A stretch of DNA of 64,000 nt from UHGV virus genome UHGV-0038492, one strand, 5' to 3'. Source of the DNA: a virus. A program made the translations under genes and the position numbers. The notes under the pieces were generated by a model, which was given only the letters and a program-made list of their open reading frames with translations, searched no databases and was not told the origin of the DNA. How positions within the stretch are numbered: position 1 is the stretch's first letter; each line of letters begins with the position of its first letter. Positions 6,428 to 62,531 of the stretch are shown piece after piece.

Positions 6428-6461
6428 GAAAAATATCTGAGAAAGATATTATCTATGTGAT
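6428..6461 (+). promoter_or_regulatory. phage promoter-like motif, copy 1
   Basis: 'aaaatatctgagaaagatattatctatgtgatgg', member of a recurring motif family. Confidence 0.45.
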
Positions 6462-6507
6462 GGTTCGGTGGTTAACTATTTTGAGTTATGTGTGTTCTAG
6501 ACGCATT

Positions 6508-6540
6508 CTAAAATATCTCAGGTATATGTTATCTACGTGA
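6508..6540 (+). promoter_or_regulatory. phage promoter-like motif, copy 2
   Basis: 'ctaaaatatctcaggtatatgttatctacgtga', tandem with copy 1 upstream of a highly expressed gene. Confidence 0.45.
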
Positions 6541-6582
6541 ACCAACACTACAATTGTATTAAACCTTTAAAGGATAAATAAA

Positions 6583-8421
6583 ATGGCTAAAGAGTTTAAC
6601 GATATTCCTAACAACGTAAATGCTGGCGCTGCTGGTGTAGACCCGGCTCCGTCTTTTGGTGGTGTGGGTGCTGGTGCAAGCAGCGTGGATAACACCCACG
6701 CAGCAAATGCTTTCGGTGGTATGACTAAGAATATCTCCACCTTCGATAAAGCGTTCGGCTATATGTCCTACGTTTCTGCCGCTTCACATTTCACCGCACT
6801 GATTGCGAAGATGGTTGAACGTAACCCGTACCTGAGCAAATTCCGCTGCGGTGTTATCGACGGTGTGAATCCAGAAATGGGTTCTGCGGCATACGTTGCT
6901 GCGCCAGCAGATGAAAACGGCAGCCACTGGATGTACGGTATCCTGTTCTTCGAACACGGTCAGTCTGTACGCTTCCGTGAAATCAACGGTAAAGAAACTT
7001 ATTACACCCTGGCTTCTCTGTTTGGTCAGGATGGTGTAATGGATTCTATCACCAAACAAATCTGCGAACAGCAGAACCTGCCGTCTGTGCAATTCATGGT
7101 AATGAACTGCATTCCAGACCTGGGTAAAACGCTGACTGAAGAGTGGGCTATCCAGCTGATGGGTCAGCTGACTCTGGGTATCTTTGGCCGTATTCCGGGC
7201 TACCTGGGTCAGATGAAACTGACTCGTGGCGATCGCTTCGTTGCACAGGTAACTGCGGTAGACGAAGGTTCTCTGACTGACGTTAACGGTTCTGCACAAC
7301 GTGCTGACCTGATGGTTCAAGTTGAACACACTCAGACCGGTAGCTTCGATACCAACCCGACGCTGATGTCCTCTGAACGTGTTCAGGGTTATCCGAGCGT
7401 TGCGGGTGTGGGTTACATCAACCTGCGTTACACTGGTCGTCGTGCACCTGAAAATGGCGTACAGGATTACAAACAGCTGCAAGCAGAAGTTGTTGTTTCT
7501 CTGATGGACTCTCAGTCTTCCGGGGCTATGGTACCAATCGAACGTCAGCTGATTGAACTGGCTGCCTTCGCAGAAATCGCCGCTATCGGTGGCTGGCGTG
7601 AACGCTTCATGCACTCTCTCAACAAAACCGATCGTCGTTTCTCCCGCGTTATGGAATACGTAGAGTGGGGTGACAAACGTCCTGATCTGAGCAAAATCGA
7701 TGGCAACCGCGAAGCTATCGAAGAGTGCCTGAACATGTTCGCCTACCCAGAAGCTGCGCTGGTTGTGAACCATCGTGCTGGTAACGGCATCGGTGGTCTC
7801 TCCACGATGTTCAGTGAAGTTTCCCAGGGTAACACTGGTACACTGTCTAACATCCTGACCATCCTGGACAACATGGCTCCGAAAGGTGCTACGGTGTTCA
7901 CGCAGCGTTTCGCTGAAATGCTGAAAGTTAATACCATCACCTGCAACCACGTTGTTATCGCTGGCGTGCCGACTGTTTCCGGTCAGTATTTCAGCAACAG
8001 CCAGAAACGTAGCTTCCAGGATCAGGACCTGGTGTCTGTTCTGAGCAAAGTTGGTGATAACCAACACGATGCCTACACTTACCTGTACGCGCAATCTTAC
8101 TCACACCGTCAGTTCAACGCGACTGAACAGCGTCTGTACCTGCTGAAGCTGGCCGCTTCCCTGTTCGGCAGCAAACAGCCGGTCGTAACTGGCGAGTCCA
8201 CCGATTTGGCAATCAACCCGAAATTCGCCAAAGCGCTGCTGGACTACGTGCGTGATAACTGCATCTTCCAAGTGAATGGTGTTACCGCAGTCAATAGCCT
8301 GGCTAATACGTTGTTCTTCAACAACGGCGGTGAAAACTTCACTCTGTCTGGTAACGGCCCGAATTCCTTCGGCAGTGACTACAACATGTCATTCGCTTCC
8401 GGTAACTACAGCCCTATCTGA
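6583..8421 (+). CDS. abundant protein with Gly/Ala-rich N-terminal tail; candidate nuclear-shell (chimallin-like) or major virion protein
   Basis: 612 aa; strong RBS 'aaaggataaataaaATG'; strong host-like codon bias (CTG/CGT/GGT) giving a 436-aa stop-free antisense frame. Confidence 0.7.
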   Translation: MAKEFNDIPNNVNAGAAGVDPAPSFGGVGAGASSVDNTHAANAFGGMTKNISTFDKAFGYMSYVSAASHFTALIAKMVERNPYLSKFRCGVIDGVNPEMGSAAYVAAPADENGSHWMYGILFFEHGQSVRFREINGKETYYTLASLFGQDGVMDSITKQICEQQNLPSVQFMVMNCIPDLGKTLTEEWAIQLMGQLTLGIFGRIPGYLGQMKLTRGDRFVAQVTAVDEGSLTDVNGSAQRADLMVQVEHTQTGSFDTNPTLMSSERVQGYPSVAGVGYINLRYTGRRAPENGVQDYKQLQAEVVVSLMDSQSSGAMVPIERQLIELAAFAEIAAIGGWRERFMHSLNKTDRRFSRVMEYVEWGDKRPDLSKIDGNREAIEECLNMFAYPEAALVVNHRAGNGIGGLSTMFSEVSQGNTGTLSNILTILDNMAPKGATVFTQRFAEMLKVNTITCNHVVIAGVPTVSGQYFSNSQKRSFQDQDLVSVLSKVGDNQHDAYTYLYAQSYSHRQFNATEQRLYLLKLAASLFGSKQPVVTGESTDLAINPKFAKALLDYVRDNCIFQVNGVTAVNSLANTLFFNNGGENFTLSGNGPNSFGSDYNMSFASGNYSPI

Positions 8422-46026: not shown

Positions 46027-47292
46027 ATGGCGAATTTCTACAAAAACAAAATTGCTCGTGAGTCTATGGAGTCTACTTCTACTGTAGTTCCAGACGGCAT
46101 CGAACTGCCAGCAGAATCTGTAGAAGGTACTCTGGCCGATATCGAGCATGACACCAAACCGATCGAAGCAATGGACGCAGACGCAGAGCTGCTGGCCGAA
46201 GACGGCGACGAAACCGATGCTCAGCTGGAAGTCCTGGACGAAGCTCAGGCTGCTGCTGACGGTGAAGGCGCTGAAGACGGCGAAGAGCCGATGGACGCTG
46301 AAGAAGACATGCCGGACGACGCTGCTAAAGCGCTGGACGTTGCTCAGGAATCCATCCGTTCTCGCTGGAACTTCGAACACCGTTCTTCTGTTGCTCACGA
46401 ATCCTACGGTTCTCGTAACCGCCGTCAGGTTGCTCGTGAATCCCTGTGGGAAGACATTAAAGCCTTCATGAAACGTATCCTTGATTGGCTGAAAGAACAG
46501 GGTCGTAAGATCAAAGATCGTTGGCTGAAATTCCACAACCAGGGTAAATCTATCCAGGCGCGTGCGAAGAAAAACGACGCAATTATCCGTAAGCTGGGCA
46601 AACAGAAGAAAGATGAAATCTCTGGTGGTTTCATTAAATCTCTGTCCATCGACGGTAAGTTCGTTGGTGACGACTCCACGAAACTGAAAGGTATTCTGAC
46701 CCAGGTTTCCAGCTTCTATAGCTCTAAAATGCCTTCTATGGCTGCTAAAGCCTCTGCCATGGTTGAAGATGTTACTAAAGGTAACGGCGCTAAGATTGAA
46801 AACCTGAAAGCCGAGTTCGGTGAACTGGCTAAACAAGATAATCTTAAGAACTTCAAGCTCGGTAACATGGCTGTTAAGTCTGAGTACGATAACGAAGGCG
46901 GTTTCTCCACTACCTTCGTTGAGTCTGAAAACACCGTTGAAACCAGCGTGAAAACTCCGTCTGTTGGCGATCTGGCTAAACTCAATGCCTTCTTCAACGA
47001 AGTGGGTAAACAGATTGAGAAGAACGTTCAGGATTATCGTAAAGTTGAAAGCGCACGTAAGTCTTTCGAAGACAGCATCGATAAGCTGCTGAAAGAAATC
47101 GACAAAGTTAAGATCGATGAAAAACCGGAACTGACCGAAAACGTGCGTCGCGCTCGTCGTTACGTTACCAGTGTTAACCAGGCTCTGTCTCTGGGTGAGA
47201 AAGTTATTGCTTCTACTCAGAAACATCTGGCTAACGGTCTGAACGGTTATATCTCAGCAGGTATTGCCGCTTACGAAAAGACTAAAGCTTAA
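46027..47292 (+). CDS. abundant protein, paralog B
   Basis: 421 aa; shared blocks 'MANF..K..ARESME', 'IRKLGKQKKDEISGGFI', 'VKTPSV', 'LNGY..AGI.AYEK.K'; 405-aa antisense open frame. Confidence 0.7.
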   Translation: MANFYKNKIARESMESTSTVVPDGIELPAESVEGTLADIEHDTKPIEAMDADAELLAEDGDETDAQLEVLDEAQAAADGEGAEDGEEPMDAEEDMPDDAAKALDVAQESIRSRWNFEHRSSVAHESYGSRNRRQVARESLWEDIKAFMKRILDWLKEQGRKIKDRWLKFHNQGKSIQARAKKNDAIIRKLGKQKKDEISGGFIKSLSIDGKFVGDDSTKLKGILTQVSSFYSSKMPSMAAKASAMVEDVTKGNGAKIENLKAEFGELAKQDNLKNFKLGNMAVKSEYDNEGGFSTTFVESENTVETSVKTPSVGDLAKLNAFFNEVGKQIEKNVQDYRKVESARKSFEDSIDKLLKEIDKVKIDEKPELTENVRRARRYVTSVNQALSLGEKVIASTQKHLANGLNGYISAGIAAYEKTKA

Positions 47293-47306
47293 CTGAACAG
47301 TTAGGC

Positions 47307-47355
47307 AAGAGAACCACCCTGTAATGGGGTGGTTCTCCCTTTTCTTTTTTTTTCG
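47307..47355 (+). terminator. rho-independent terminator
   Basis: 'gagaaccaccctgtaatggggtggttctc' followed by long T-run. Confidence 0.75.
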
Positions 47356-47359
47356 ATTA

Positions 47360-47398
47360 AAAATAATCTCAGATAGATATTACCTTAGTGAGATTACG
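47360..47398 (+). promoter_or_regulatory. phage promoter-like motif, copy 5
   Basis: 'aaaataatctcagatagatattaccttagtgagattacg'. Confidence 0.5.
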
Positions 47399-47443
47399 CT
47401 GTAATCTTTTAACGACCTGTTTATTACGTTTAGGAGAATTATC

Positions 47444-47620
47444 ATGAACCGCTTCCAATCCAAGAAAGAATTCCAGACAACCGAAGACATGGTGGTCACT
47501 GTGGAAACACCAACCACTGATGTCGTTTGCTTAGTGACACCCATCATAGCGCACAAGAGAAAAGAAGTTTCTCAGTGCCCAGAGGTTCGGGCAGTAAAAC
47601 GTTTTATTAAAGCGCTATAA
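47444..47620 (+). CDS. small protein (58 aa), below ORF-track cutoff
   Basis: RBS 'taggagaattatcATG'; sits between promoter motif and terminator. Confidence 0.5.
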   Translation: MNRFQSKKEFQTTEDMVVTVETPTTDVVCLVTPIIAHKRKEVSQCPEVRAVKRFIKAL

Positions 47621-47624
47621 TTGC

Positions 47625-47654
47625 TAAGCCCTTCGTAGAGGGCATTATTTTTTC
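47625..47654 (+). terminator. hairpin terminator
   Basis: 'gcccttcgtagagggc' followed by T-run. Confidence 0.55.
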
Positions 47655-47673
47655 GACCTTTAGGAGAATAGAA

Positions 47674-48225
47674 ATGAACAAATTTAATATCTTAGACGCT
47701 AAAATCGTATCCGAGTCTTCTATTCAGCAAGAAATCTTTCGTGTTCAGTTCGGTGAGAAAGTTCTGAATATTCCGCGCCCAGTTATGATTGGCTTAGCGA
47801 TATTCGTTAACAACAGTCATTGCAACGGTTCGGCGTTGTCAGTTCTTGAGTACGGTAACTATCAGTTCTATATTCCAGAACACCTCGAGTATAACCGTTT
47901 TATTGAACTTAAACCGTTCTATAAGTTCATGCTTGATGCAGGGTATTCGATTCTAACCAAAACGTATATTCGTGACTACTCGAAGTTAGAATCTTTCTAT
48001 CGTGCCCGTGGTTTTCGTGTCCCACAACCGTTTGACGGATACCAGACACGTGTTGTGTTAACTGCACCGTTAACGAAAGAACTGGCTTCCTACAAACTGG
48101 ATATCGAGCAGAAACTGCTGCGTGACGACTTACTGAAAATCTATAACCAGTTGTCCGTGGTTCCTTCTTCAACTATCTCGAACATTGAACCAGAATACGG
48201 AATAAGACAATACATGGAAGGTTAA
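47674..48225 (+). CDS. hypothetical protein
   Basis: 183 aa; RBS 'taggagaatagaaATG'. Confidence 0.55.
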   Translation: MNKFNILDAKIVSESSIQQEIFRVQFGEKVLNIPRPVMIGLAIFVNNSHCNGSALSVLEYGNYQFYIPEHLEYNRFIELKPFYKFMLDAGYSILTKTYIRDYSKLESFYRARGFRVPQPFDGYQTRVVLTAPLTKELASYKLDIEQKLLRDDLLKIYNQLSVVPSSTISNIEPEYGIRQYMEG

Positions 48226-48226
48226 G

Positions 48227-48532
48227 ATGAATCCGAGAGCCGACAGAATAGACGTGATACGTTTTGAAGAGTGTGAAACCGAGTACCAGGTTAAACGTAT
48301 CGAATTACGTTTAGTTATCCCTAAGCTAAACGAGCCTGAGTGGAACGGTGAGCTGATGGTACCGCTCGCCGAACCAATTAAAACGGGGGCAGGTGAGATT
48401 AATTATCTTCATTTAGAGGCGGCGGGTCGAAAAGTAACCGTTTGGCATCTTGCCGACGGTTACAAAACCAGTCAGCTTACACGTAAAGCTTTTATTCGGA
48501 AATTAAGAGAGTCGATGGGAGTTGTGAAATGA
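48227..48532 (+). CDS. hypothetical protein
   Basis: 101-aa ORF with RBS. Confidence 0.5.
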   Translation: MNPRADRIDVIRFEECETEYQVKRIELRLVIPKLNEPEWNGELMVPLAEPIKTGAGEINYLHLEAAGRKVTVWHLADGYKTSQLTRKAFIRKLRESMGVVK

Positions 48533-55149: not shown

Positions 55150-55190
55150 AAAATATTTTCAGATATATATTACTTAGGTGAGAGAATTAC
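55150..55190 (+). promoter_or_regulatory. phage promoter-like motif, copy 6 (near-identical to copy 5)
   Basis: 'aaatattttcagatatatattacttaggtgagagaattacg'. Confidence 0.5.
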
Positions 55191-55230
55191 GTAATACTCA
55201 TTTATCGAATACCTAATTAGGAGCTATATC

Positions 55231-55374
55231 ATGATTTCTGTAAAACACAAAAAAGCTATCTTCGCTGTTGTTATCGCTGTTGTTCTGGGTTGCCTGTACC
55301 TGGATATCGACAAAGGCTACGACACTTGCATCGACAACGGTAATTCCGTTGCACAGTGCACTGGTCGTGGTTAA
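55231..55374 (+). CDS. small hydrophobic peptide (47 aa), below ORF-track cutoff
   Basis: RBS 'taggagctatatcATG'; 'MISVKHKKAIFAVVIAVVLGCLYLDIDKGYDTCIDNGNSVAQCTGRG'; optimised codons; own terminator. Confidence 0.6.
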   Translation: MISVKHKKAIFAVVIAVVLGCLYLDIDKGYDTCIDNGNSVAQCTGRG

Positions 55375-61408: not shown

Positions 61409-61437
61409 GGATAGATATTATCAAAGGGAGACTGTCA
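61409..61437 (+). promoter_or_regulatory. phage promoter-like motif, copy 7
   Basis: 'ggatagatattatcaaagggagactgtcag'. Confidence 0.45.
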
Positions 61438-61457
61438 GTTGGTTTAAAGGAGACTTT

Positions 61458-61508
61458 ATGGAAAAATTACAGTTAAAACTAAAGATATGTACCATTATTA
61501 AAACTTAA
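61458..61508 (+). other. 16-codon upstream mini-ORF with strong RBS, in frame with the downstream gene and separated from it by one TAA
   Basis: 'aaaggagactttATG'; MEKLQLKLKICTIIKT-stop, then 4 codons, then ATG at 61521. Confidence 0.35.
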
Positions 61509-61520
61509 TCTGGCCCCTAC

Positions 61521-62531
61521 ATGAACCGTCTTGATATTGATGTGGTGCCCAGTATTACTGACCGCTCGTTGTATCAAAAGTCAGGACTGCAAAAACTCAT
61601 CACTTTTGAGAATAATACTGGTGTGCCAATTTACGTCACTGAAACCAGTGGCGGTAGCTTTATTTTAACTCCGTCCAAAAGCCCGGCTGATGAGCATGGG
61701 GTTGTTGTTTATGTAACGTATCAATCGTTCGGAAATCTGGTTAACCTGAACGGGTTTGCAGAAGTCTTACCAGAAAAACAATTCACTAAATTCTGTGCAG
61801 ATTTAAAGGAGAAAGGAGAGGTCACACTCCGATACGTGGTTGACGATATCGGTGCTTTATTACGTGGGGACTTGGTTGTATTGAAGCAGCTAGGATTCGC
61901 ATTTTCAATCACACCAGTTCGATTAGAAAGTACGCCACCGAGCGTAAGACCAGGAGGCGAGAGAACTGAATTTACATTAGGTGTTATTGTTGTGCAGCGT
62001 TACGACGATCCCGAACTATATCGATGGATTAGATTCTACGGAACGCGCATGGAAGTACAACCGATTCTATCTCGATATTACGAACCGGGTGTGTACATGG
62101 TAATCGGAGGAGGAGACAAAGTAGAAGGGAGTAGGATGATTCACTTCGAGTTCGATGACTTACTGTCACCGTTCCGTGTTTTTAAAGATAAAGAAACAGC
62201 CACTGCGTTTCGATGGCAAGAAACGTTACCGGATATTCACGAGATAAAGGAAAAGCTGGAAAGTCAATACAGAGAAAAATTAGAAAGTTTGGATTCGGCA
62301 AAAGACAAACTGGAAATAGAACACAAAAAACAACTACAGAATTTGGCTTTGGAAAAGGAGCGTTTGACTCTAGCGTATAAACAACAAGAACTAGAAGCAA
62401 AGTCTCGGGCAGAGGCACGAAAAGAATTCTACGAGACTCGTTCTTACATTCGTAAAGATGGGTCAGACCTATTTAAATCAGTCCCTGCGTATCTGGCGGC
62501 GGGTGTCGCATTTATAGGGATGCTAAAGTAA
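61521..62531 (+). CDS. hypothetical protein with C-terminal coiled-coil and hydrophobic tail
   Basis: 336-aa ORF; no RBS of its own; tail 'AYLAAGVAFIGMLK'. Confidence 0.5.
   Translation: MNRLDIDVVPSITDRSLYQKSGLQKLITFENNTGVPIYVTETSGGSFILTPSKSPADEHGVVVYVTYQSFGNLVNLNGFAEVLPEKQFTKFCADLKEKGEVTLRYVVDDIGALLRGDLVVLKQLGFAFSITPVRLESTPPSVRPGGERTEFTLGVIVVQRYDDPELYRWIRFYGTRMEVQPILSRYYEPGVYMVIGGGDKVEGSRMIHFEFDDLLSPFRVFKDKETATAFRWQETLPDIHEIKEKLESQYREKLESLDSAKDKLEIEHKKQLQNLALEKERLTLAYKQQELEAKSRAEARKEFYETRSYIRKDGSDLFKSVPAYLAAGVAFIGMLK

Follow-up and report, generated by a model that had tools for sequence, protein, structure and literature searches.

A 58-codon phage ORF as a miniature allele at a variable, recombining slot with a predicted early promoter in Seoul-like jumbo phages

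The window analyzed here is a stretch of viral DNA of 64,000 nucleotides in its full length. At positions 47444–47620 it carries a single open reading frame (ORF) on the plus strand, which the ORF listing translates as MNRFQSKKEFQTTEDMVVTVETPTTDVVCLVTPIIAHKRKEVSQCPEVRAVKRFIKAL. The features of the unit and of its two flanking genes are as follows.

46027–47292: second phiKZ_IP head-protein gene, upstream of the unit
47309–47353, plus strand: upstream terminator with a 13-bp stem and a T-run, found by the terminator scan; it closes the phiKZ_IP gene and forms the left border of the unit
47361–47389, plus strand: early-type promoter motif of the phiKZ-group class, with the core AGATAGATATTAC at 47371–47383
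47390, plus strand: predicted transcription start, a G located 6 nt past the TTAC core
47391–47407, plus strand: leader hairpin AGATTAC-GCT-GTAATCT, which the MFE structure and the centroid structure both contain
47432–47436, plus strand: Shine-Dalgarno sequence AGGAG with a 7-nt spacer to the ATG, identical across all allele classes
47444–47620, plus strand: 58-aa ORF, the short-1 allele of the slot gene, from the ATG start to the TAA stop (included)
47628–47653, plus strand: terminator-like hairpin GCCCTTCGTAGAGGGC (GCCCTT-CGTA-GAGGGC) followed by ATTATTTTTT, identified by scan and fold; right border of the unit
47674–48225, plus strand: conserved 183-aa neighbor (phrog_12369), outside the unit, which served as anchor and control gene

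The first-pass annotation had proposed that this ORF is an unannotated real gene forming a compact single-gene unit, and most of that proposal stood. The ribosome-binding site it called strong is the AGGAG lying 7 nt 5′ of the ATG, and this site and the ATG are intact in all of the ~38 short-allele loci examined. Both a translation signal and conservation of the 58-aa frame were found. The proposed distance of 60 nt to copy 5 of a promoter motif is correct when counted from the TATTAC core, and amounts to 56 nt from the end of the motif. The hairpin terminator said to follow the ORF corresponds to GCCCTT-CGTA-GAGGGC at 47628–47643, which starts 8 nt past the stop and has a stem conserved in ~20 haplotypes, so that an early-class promoter, a ribosome-binding site, and a terminator-like hairpin of the unit's own are all present. 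The word "unannotated" describes the ORF track used in that first reading and does not extend to the public records, since PGAP calls the identical 177-nt CDS as "hypothetical protein" on two circular RefSeq replicons of 222 kb (NZ_CP173450.1 and NZ_CP134650.1). Furthermore, the exact 58-aa protein falls in a cluster that groups 67 sequence variants from E. coli, Shigella, and Salmonella assemblies under the name "hypothetical protein", and the identical or a near-identical peptide is encoded on well over 200 contigs of the Seoul-like jumbo phage in enterobacterial assemblies. Its tryptic fragment EFQTTEDMVVTVETPTTDVVCLVTPIIAHK is suited to targeted mass spectrometry. Collectively, the ORF is a real, conserved small gene with its own predicted early promoter and terminator. 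Already known are the CDS, annotated as hypothetical, and the common class to which it belongs, that of small early phage ORFans; the new elements are the history and the population genetics of the gene, a shrunken allele at an early-gene slot where several alleles recombine.

The promoter motif belongs to a family of 27-nt direct repeats, D2, of which positions 47361–47387 are copy 5. Its core AGATAKATWTTAYC occurs seven times in the window, always on the plus strand, against an expectation of 0.10, and seven copies were never reached in 100 shuffles; six of the seven copies are intergenic and the remaining one lies near a gene end. Published early consensuses include TATATTAC for phiKZ, TTTCARRYAKATATTATYWAAGTGWA for N1M2, and TTTCARRYAKATATTATYWAAGTG(WA) for the early promoters of OBP and N1M2 (PMC7058600), and the window motif, TCAGATAGATATTACCTTAGTGAGA, fits such consensuses nearly base for base. 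The early promoter of AR9 reads AAATATATATTAT-(6N)-G, where the G is the start site, and a start 6 nt past the element has been determined experimentally for AR9, phiKZ, and phiR1-37 (PMC5312081). Transcription from such early promoters in the phiKZ-related phages is ascribed to the RNA polymerase carried in the virion (PMC5312081; PMC7598289). Like those promoters, the motif of the window has an AT-rich core of the ATATTAC/ATATTAT form, which is found in AGATAGATATTAC, carries a G exactly 6 nt past the TTAY in all seven copies, and is over-represented on one strand in front of genes. Unlike them, the motif copies of this phage have a consensus with AGATAG/T on the 5′ side, where the others read TATAT. 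The motif is conserved at the same slot in the phages Asesino, phiEaH2, and SPN3US, and no sigma-70-like site was found at 47300–47444. At the sequence level, the promoter is one of the phiKZ-group early class, and we infer that the unit is expressed early. A start at G47390, giving a leader of 54 nt, is predicted from the sequence together with the literature on related phages.

It is well established that stem-loops at the 5′ terminus stabilize bacterial and phage mRNAs, the ompA leader being an example. The leader hairpin of the unit resembles such elements in lying 1 nt from the 5′ end, whose position is itself a prediction, and in combining a conserved stem with a variable loop and one compensatory pair. 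Among close relatives the stem is fixed and the loop takes six forms (GCT, ACA, ACC, ATC, GGT, and ACT). At the sixth pair the window has A-T, Erskinevirus has C-G, and SPN3US has G.T, as tabulated by eye; MAFFT set the distant sequences out of register. None of the other six early promoters of the window is followed by such a hairpin. A scan against Rfam gave only sub-threshold matches of the terminator-like kind.

Two putative terminators bound the unit, and the upstream one (hairpin 47309–47337) is the stronger. It is kept in the related loci L005–L007 and, with a different stem sequence, in Asesino and SPN3US. The downstream hairpin is followed by ATTA and by six T residues at 47648–47653. 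It shows the G+C-rich stem and the T-run of an intrinsic terminator, in a modest form, with a stem of 6 bp including a G.U as the sixth pair and a T-run offset by 4 nt. A generic terminator scan of the 5-kb region found seven candidates, with 4.8 expected from shuffles, and is not enriched, so the downstream hairpin is backed by conservation rather than by the scan. Its loop varies among the ~20 haplotypes, at least seven different loops being present, and the stem, GCCCTC/GAGGGC among relatives, shows a compensatory change to ACCCTC/GAGGGT (G-C to A-T) in L007. This compensatory change in a conserved stem argues that the hairpin acts as a boundary. Because their stems are kept, their loops vary, and compensatory pairs occur, the leader hairpin and the terminator hairpin are both regarded as selected structures.

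The surrounding genes identify the phage. The upstream genes encode two paralogous phiKZ_IP internal head proteins, and the downstream series consists of the 183-aa gene, a 101-aa gene, and DHFR. Homologues of the 183-aa neighbor, 35–45% identical, are present in the Erwinia phages Asesino, phiEaH2, and Stratton and in the Salmonella phage SPN3US and its relatives, and 20 kb of the window align to these 240-kb phages at ~76% identity. Near-identical DNA was found in IMG/VR contigs of ~225 kb, in two circular 222-kb "plasmids" (from E. coli and Enterobacter ludwigii), and in hundreds of Salmonella, E. coli, and Shigella assembly contigs. The DNA of the window also matches the persistent Seoul-like jumbo phages described in a recent preprint (bioRxiv 10.1101/2024.12.31.630880). 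The phage belongs to the phiKZ group and is a Seoul-like jumbo phage, related to SPN3US, from Salmonella and E. coli. In a megablast search of a phage collection from which this phage is absent, the locus gave a match of only 52 nt, and a tblastn search of the peptide against 50,697 phage records returned chance matches only (E=9).

We define the slot as the interval between the second phiKZ_IP paralog and the 183-aa gene. It is occupied by a gene for 218 aa in Asesino (ASESINO_72, gp72) and in phiEaH2 (gp239), and by one for 251 aa in SPN3US (ACQ60_gp211, YP_009153349.1); these three genes belong to phrog_18643 (PHROGs) and are located behind the same promoter motif and leader. Two IMG/VR relatives whose 183-aa neighbor is 78% identical carry a 213-aa slot gene, and so does the IMG/VR contig L004, although its 183-aa neighbor is 100% identical to that of the window. 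A look-up of the exact neighbor returned 10 distinct places, of which 8 have the 213-aa gene and 2 have the 58-aa gene. Three long types were distinguished.

Long type A, 213 aa: contig L004, in the window's species
Long type B, 213 aa: L006 and L007, in a sister species whose neighbor gene is ~70% identical at the nucleotide level
Long type C, 213 aa: L040, in the window's species

These 213-aa types are mutually 35–53% identical, and the long families are collinear homologues of the Erskinevirus/Seoulvirus slot genes (hhalign E=1.4e-4 over 162 columns). Within the species of the window, the slot holds long types A and C, short forms of 58 aa and 59 aa, and rarer in-frame derivatives of 52 aa and 38 aa. 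A single phage species carries multiple alleles at this slot, and at least four of the allele classes are deeply diverged. A similar wording at the N-termini suggested that the slot gene could be a paralog of the 183-aa neighbor, an idea that was rejected (BLASTP E=1.0). The position and the regulatory flanks in the window are those of the slot-gene family: the 58-aa ORF shares with the Seoulvirus/Erskinevirus gene the same position, promoter motif, leader hairpin, and layout of the ribosome-binding site, and it aligns to both ends of that gene. It differs in having no counterpart of ~155 central residues, and the full-length architecture of the family (~213–251 aa, with an N-terminal domain at residues 1–130 in the model) is absent from it. 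Neither the 58-aa ORF nor the 213-aa alleles matched phrog_18643 at E<=0.01.

The relation of the short form to the long gene can be followed along the ORF, where the following segments were delimited.

47444–47533, plus strand: codons 1–30, the beta-hairpin region, aligned by MAFFT to the N-terminal ~33 residues of long alleles
47534–47617, plus strand: codons 31–58, with the terminal helix ...AVxRFxxAL, aligned by MAFFT to the C-terminal ~33 residues of long alleles
47528–47545, plus strand: 18 nt (codons 29–34) missing in the 52-aa allele (P0004, locus L010)
47483–47542, plus strand: 60 nt missing in the 38-aa allele (P0005, loci L011–L014, 14 contigs)

The inferred deletion junction lies at ~47533/47534. 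The N-terminal alignment is exemplified by VTVETPTTDVVCL against VTMVAPNSKVVIL, and the C-terminal one by ...P-IIA...AVKRFIKAL against ...PLVAS...AVDRFFEAL. When the two halves were compared with the long family by an HMM shuffle test, 248 of 5000 shuffles scored as well as the N-terminal half (p=0.05) and 8 of 5000 as well as the C-terminal half (p=0.0016), and hhalign placed residues 32–58 of the ORF on residues 181–213 of the long family with p=0.02. Taken alone, these homology statistics of the 58-aa allele are modest; the link is closed by a 59-aa allele, short-2 (P0091, MNRLISAKEISLTEDVAVITATPTAEVICILTPVLKLTRKEEKPSTSAAQAVDRFFEAL), whose full-length identity to the 58-aa ORF is 45% (E=4.7e-6, HMMER against 1.84 billion representatives). 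On at least 24 contigs, short-2 fills this slot in the window's own phage species. Its final 39 nt, including the stop, match long type A exactly; recombination between short and long forms therefore takes place within the coding sequence, and the two are allelic. Two large protein collections, one of them comprising 1.84 billion representatives, contained no long protein with a short-type N-terminus. A match to a 225-aa repeat protein (P0092, E=4e-4) was judged spurious. The slot gene is a hypervariable accessory gene whose ancestral form is the one of 213–251 aa, and the 58-aa ORF is its miniature allele, from which ~155 central codons were lost in frame. As for the shorter derivatives, the 60-nt deletion is bounded by an imperfect direct repeat, GACAACC and GACACCC (47476–47482 and 47536–47542), and leaves the 38-aa allele without the entire predicted beta-hairpin.

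The sequences on both sides of the slot gene tell a different story from its coding body. Compared with the type A contig L004, the window is 100% identical in the leader from TTAGTGAGATT to the ATG, unalignable from the second codon on, and 96–98% identical downstream of the slot. Across the allele types, the promoter, the 5′ UTR, and the terminator are near-identical and the coding bodies are saturated with change. Types A and C have an amino-acid identity of 35% and a pS of 0.78, versus 100% identical protein and a dS of 0.1 for their neighbors, and neighbor genes beside different allele classes are up to 99.6% identical. Because the bodies are saturated and the neighbors near-identical, these comparisons show that old alleles have moved among genomes, apparently by homologous recombination in the flanks, namely the promoter and leader on one side and the terminator and next gene on the other. 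Within each long type dN/dS is 0.13–0.19, which indicates that the long proteins are functional. The long gene is missing from many viable genomes, and therefore the slot is dispensable in nature.

A comparable arrangement is known from T4-type phages. The hyperplastic regions of their genomes contain PeSL (promoter-early stem-loop) cassettes, where modules of early promoter and stem-loop enclose ORFans that are not essential and that recombination shuffles (Arbiol et al. 2010, PMC2839356; PMC4122927). The slot is similar to them in that a small non-essential early gene lies between a stem-loop with an early promoter and a second stem-loop, and in that conserved flanks enclose a content that varies, by replacement, deletion, or swapping, among phages otherwise ~96–100% identical. 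It differs as follows: the promoter is of the phiKZ-group virion-polymerase class instead of the sigma-70 class, the flanks share only TTTTTTCGA and are not copies of one dispersed repeat, and the exchange looks like ordinary allelic homologous recombination rather than recombination between dispersed PeSLs. In its logic the slot comes nearest to the PeSL cassettes and works as they do, although it falls outside their family.

The two short classes allow selection on the small frame to be assessed. Short-1 and short-2 share the same junction and differ in length by one codon. They differ at 79 of 174 nt, distributed as 24, 18, and 37 over the three codon positions, with a pN of 0.36 and a pS of 0.76 (Fisher p=5e-6), a divergence that includes a tract of 39 nt acquired through recombination with long alleles; in codons 1–33, dN/dS is 0.17 (p=7e-4). 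Since the two classes differ mostly at synonymous sites, the frame is considered to be under protein-level selection. The three length changes identified, from long to short, from 58 to 52 aa (−18 nt), and from 58 to 38 aa (−60 nt), are all multiples of three. Among the ~38 loci, no nonsense or clear frameshift allele was observed, the sole frameshift (P0003) being located 6 nt from the end of a 1.5-kb contig, and the six loci that were found without use of the peptide sequence (L008, L009, L036, L045, L046, and L047) are all intact. A short form that has diversified under purifying selection points to a working small protein rather than debris.

Within the 58-aa class, 7 non-synonymous and 6 synonymous changes segregate, which gives a pN/pS of 0.33, a value biased downward by a sample partly chosen by exact protein identity and only marginally below neutrality (p=0.05). 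In the same genomes, the 183-aa neighbor has 10 non-synonymous and 66 synonymous changes, with a pN/pS of 0.04 (Fisher p=0.002 for the difference). Synonymous diversity is 6 per 38.7 sites in the 58-aa class versus 66 per 120 sites in the neighbor. Exact-pattern scans for copies of the short allele irrespective of frame found one locus each in the JGI metagenomes and in IMG/VR, a number that does not allow an unbiased census. The 58-aa class appears to be under relaxed constraint, and further in-frame shrinkage to 52 and 38 aa is tolerated. In our reading, the frame encodes a real small protein, presumably translated, under weaker constraint than the core genes; less probably, it has already begun to drift.

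The product was also compared with known families and structures. The 58-aa ORF and the 213-aa alleles have no match in Pfam or PHROGs, and neither the long nor the short forms have a match in the PDB. The AlphaFold model of the 58-aa peptide, of low confidence (pLDDT 55, pTM 0.25), contains strands at residues 16–21 and 26–31 and a helix at residues 46–57, and may be said to agree with the alignment at that confidence. The model of long type A (pLDDT 59) is reasonably confident for residues 1–130 only; a search of BFVD with it returned the Erwinia-phage orthologue and other uncharacterised phage proteins only. The structure alignment is shallow, and the search with the long-type profile did not return types B and C. 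By residue count, the charge of the peptide is about −2 in the N-terminal half and about +5 in the C-terminal half, and no membrane segment is present in it. The neighboring head proteins prompted the idea of a propeptide cut by the prohead protease (S/A/G-x-E), which was dropped after inspection, the motif being inconsistent across alleles. The early promoter also argues against a virion protein. The literature on SPN3US "gp55" contained nothing relevant.

These observations bear on three other explanations of the unit. An internal deletion may have inactivated a dispensable 213-aa gene, leaving a decaying remnant whose signals are not yet eroded and whose peptide is idle. Such an origin would agree with the derivation of the ORF, by loss of ~155 codons, from a family whose members are long in every outgroup, with the further natural deletions to 52 and 38 aa, with the relaxed pN/pS relative to the neighbor in the same genomes, and with the missing fold or family match; the lower synonymous diversity than in the neighbor would fit a young allele spreading by recombination. 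Against this, the two short classes are only 45% identical and nevertheless keep length, junction, and frame, synonymous change dominates between them, including in the N-terminal 33 codons, and random substitution to that divergence leaves only ~11% of replicates free of stop codons. The three in-frame indels and the intact frames of the ~38 loci also speak against decay, and we regard a remnant as unlikely, though as an explanation to be taken seriously.

Alternatively, the unit could matter as DNA or RNA, with the promoter, the leader hairpin, and a leaky terminator feeding early transcription into the 183-aa, 101-aa, and DHFR genes and the frame staying open solely because a closed one would cause polarity or disturb the next ribosome-binding site. 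The far better conservation of promoter, leader, and terminator than of the coding body in all allele classes would be expected then, as would the modest terminator; no early-type motif precedes the genes directly downstream of the unit, which start 30 nt past the hairpin, and deletions restricted to multiples of three are equally expected if translation to the natural stop is what matters. However, the excess of third-position changes and the low dN/dS between short-1 and short-2 indicate selection on the amino-acid sequence, the long alleles give the same signal within types, and the compensatory change in the terminator stem suggests that the hairpin is there as a boundary. This explanation is very unlikely in our view. 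It is scarcely credible that the ORF arose by chance and that no frame, or a frame on the opposite strand, is the real feature. A minus-strand ORF of equal length (58 aa, 47380–47556) does exist, but its start codon is TTG, it lacks a Shine-Dalgarno sequence, and the 18-nt and 60-nt deletions seen in nature interrupt it; the substitutions are distributed over the codon positions as the plus-strand frame would predict, the gene callers and PGAP all call the plus-strand ORF, and no Rfam family reaches its threshold at the locus.

The reading we prefer, and hold to be probable, is that the unit would be a monocistronic early gene and that its ORF is a recombining shortened allele with a working small protein. 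The injected virion RNA polymerase would start at about G47390, 6 nt past the AGATAGATATTAC core, and produce a 54-nt leader that opens with the 7-bp hairpin, probably shielding the 5′ end from decay. Ribosomes would then load at the AGGAG and translate the 58 codons, and transcription would stop, at least partly, at the hairpin and T-run of 47628–47653. The predicted product would join a net-acidic beta-hairpin segment at its N-terminus to a net-basic helix segment at its C-terminus. Our best guess for its function is that it binds a partner, from the host or from the phage, at an early stage of the infection, in host takeover or counter-defence. This guess draws on the early promoter, on the dispensability of the gene, and on how deeply its alleles have diverged, in analogy to other phage early accessory genes. 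A bolder proposal is that the slot is a balanced multi-allelic arms-race locus of persistent Seoul-like jumbo phages and that the 58-aa and 59-aa alleles are a selected minimal module, made up of the beta-hairpin and the basic C-terminal helix, instead of damaged copies; this module either keeps one activity of the 213-aa protein (e.g., binding of a host defence or takeover target) or acts as a decoy or antagonist. We consider this quite unlikely at present; if it were true, the frequency of the module should be tied to host genotype or to the persistent (carrier-state) lifestyle.

For the annotation of such phages, the locus indicates that a frame of fewer than 60 aa can be a genuine gene when it follows an early promoter of the phiKZ type. 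Searching for the motif-(6N)-G pattern offers a cheap means of finding such frames, a second of which is located at 55231–55374. The long, short, 52-aa, and 38-aa alleles constitute a natural, ready-made deletion series. The alleles of the slot are shuffled via its conserved regulatory flanks, here in a jumbo phage that forms a nucleus and persists in clinical isolates of Salmonella and E. coli. The evolutionary logic is that of the hyperplastic regions of T4, with a virion-polymerase promoter as the driver, and such loci are natural candidates for host-interaction or counter-defence genes.

The second phiKZ_IP paralog, which lies upstream of the slot holding the 58-aa gene, varies strongly in its 3' half (46671-47292), where the window and L004, a close relative carrying the 213-aa type A allele in the slot, are only 52-86% identical, whereas their identity downstream of the slot is 96-98%. 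The divergence island thus covers more than the slot and takes in the C-terminal half of this head protein gene as well. In one relative, the 101-aa gene that follows the 183-aa gene is called at just 58 aa (L038 2179-2355, equivalent to 48227-48532 of the window), which suggests that the small accessory genes of the slot region are truncated recurrently.

Finer variation is found in the two conserved hairpins of the unit, the leader hairpin and the terminator-like hairpin. Across near-identical genomes (relatives L004-L053), their stems are fixed and their loops (47398-47400 and 47634-47637) are hypervariable. In the terminator hairpin, the loop sequence CGTA is the reverse complement of TACG, another of its loop forms, and this relationship suggests that the loop is inverted by template switching. 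Each of the unit's two terminators is followed by a T-run and CGA (TTTTTTCGA; 47348-47356 and 47648-47656), and the downstream copy of this element, TTTTCGACC, is kept out to Asesino and SPN3US in a comparison that took in loci L001 and L002. The element could serve in end-processing or as a promoter element.

The slot gene is overlapped on the - strand by an antisense ORF (47380-47556), likewise of 58 aa, with a TTG start and without a Shine-Dalgarno sequence. We considered this ORF as a gene and judged it to be a chance occurrence, because it is interrupted by the deletions that occur naturally and because the pattern of substitutions matches the + frame.

Copies of the phiKZ-group type early-promoter motif also precede other small ORFs of the window. 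Within 55161-55374, AGGAG and then a 47-aa ORF come after a further copy, AGATATATATTAC-TTAGGT-G. This ORF is also under the 60-aa cutoff and contains a hydrophobic, membrane-like segment in its sequence. Within 61409-61520, a mini-ORF of 16 codons, preceded by a GGAG site, lies downstream of another copy; it may be a leader peptide or only chance.

Small ORFs behind early-promoter copies
55231-55374, 47-aa ORF (MISVKHKKAIFAVVIAVVLGCLYLDIDKG...), with AGGAG and an early-promoter copy upstream
about 61458-61508, 16-codon mini-ORF (MEKLQLKLKICTIIKT), directly ahead of the 336-aa gene at 61521

Near the copy at 6440, a weaker second copy, CTCAGGTATATGTTATCTACGTG, lies about 90 nt further on (6440-6560), and the two may be tandem early promoters ahead of the gene at 6583.

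The window's phage was not found in the phage collection searched, where the top match has about 76% identity. It is present as circular 222-kb 'plasmids' (NZ_CP173450.1 and NZ_CP134650.1) and as 220-230-kb contigs in many isolate assemblies of Salmonella, E. coli, Shigella, and Enterobacter. This occurrence matches the 'Seoul-like' phages, the persistent, virulent jumbo phages described in bioRxiv 10.1101/2024.12.31.630880.
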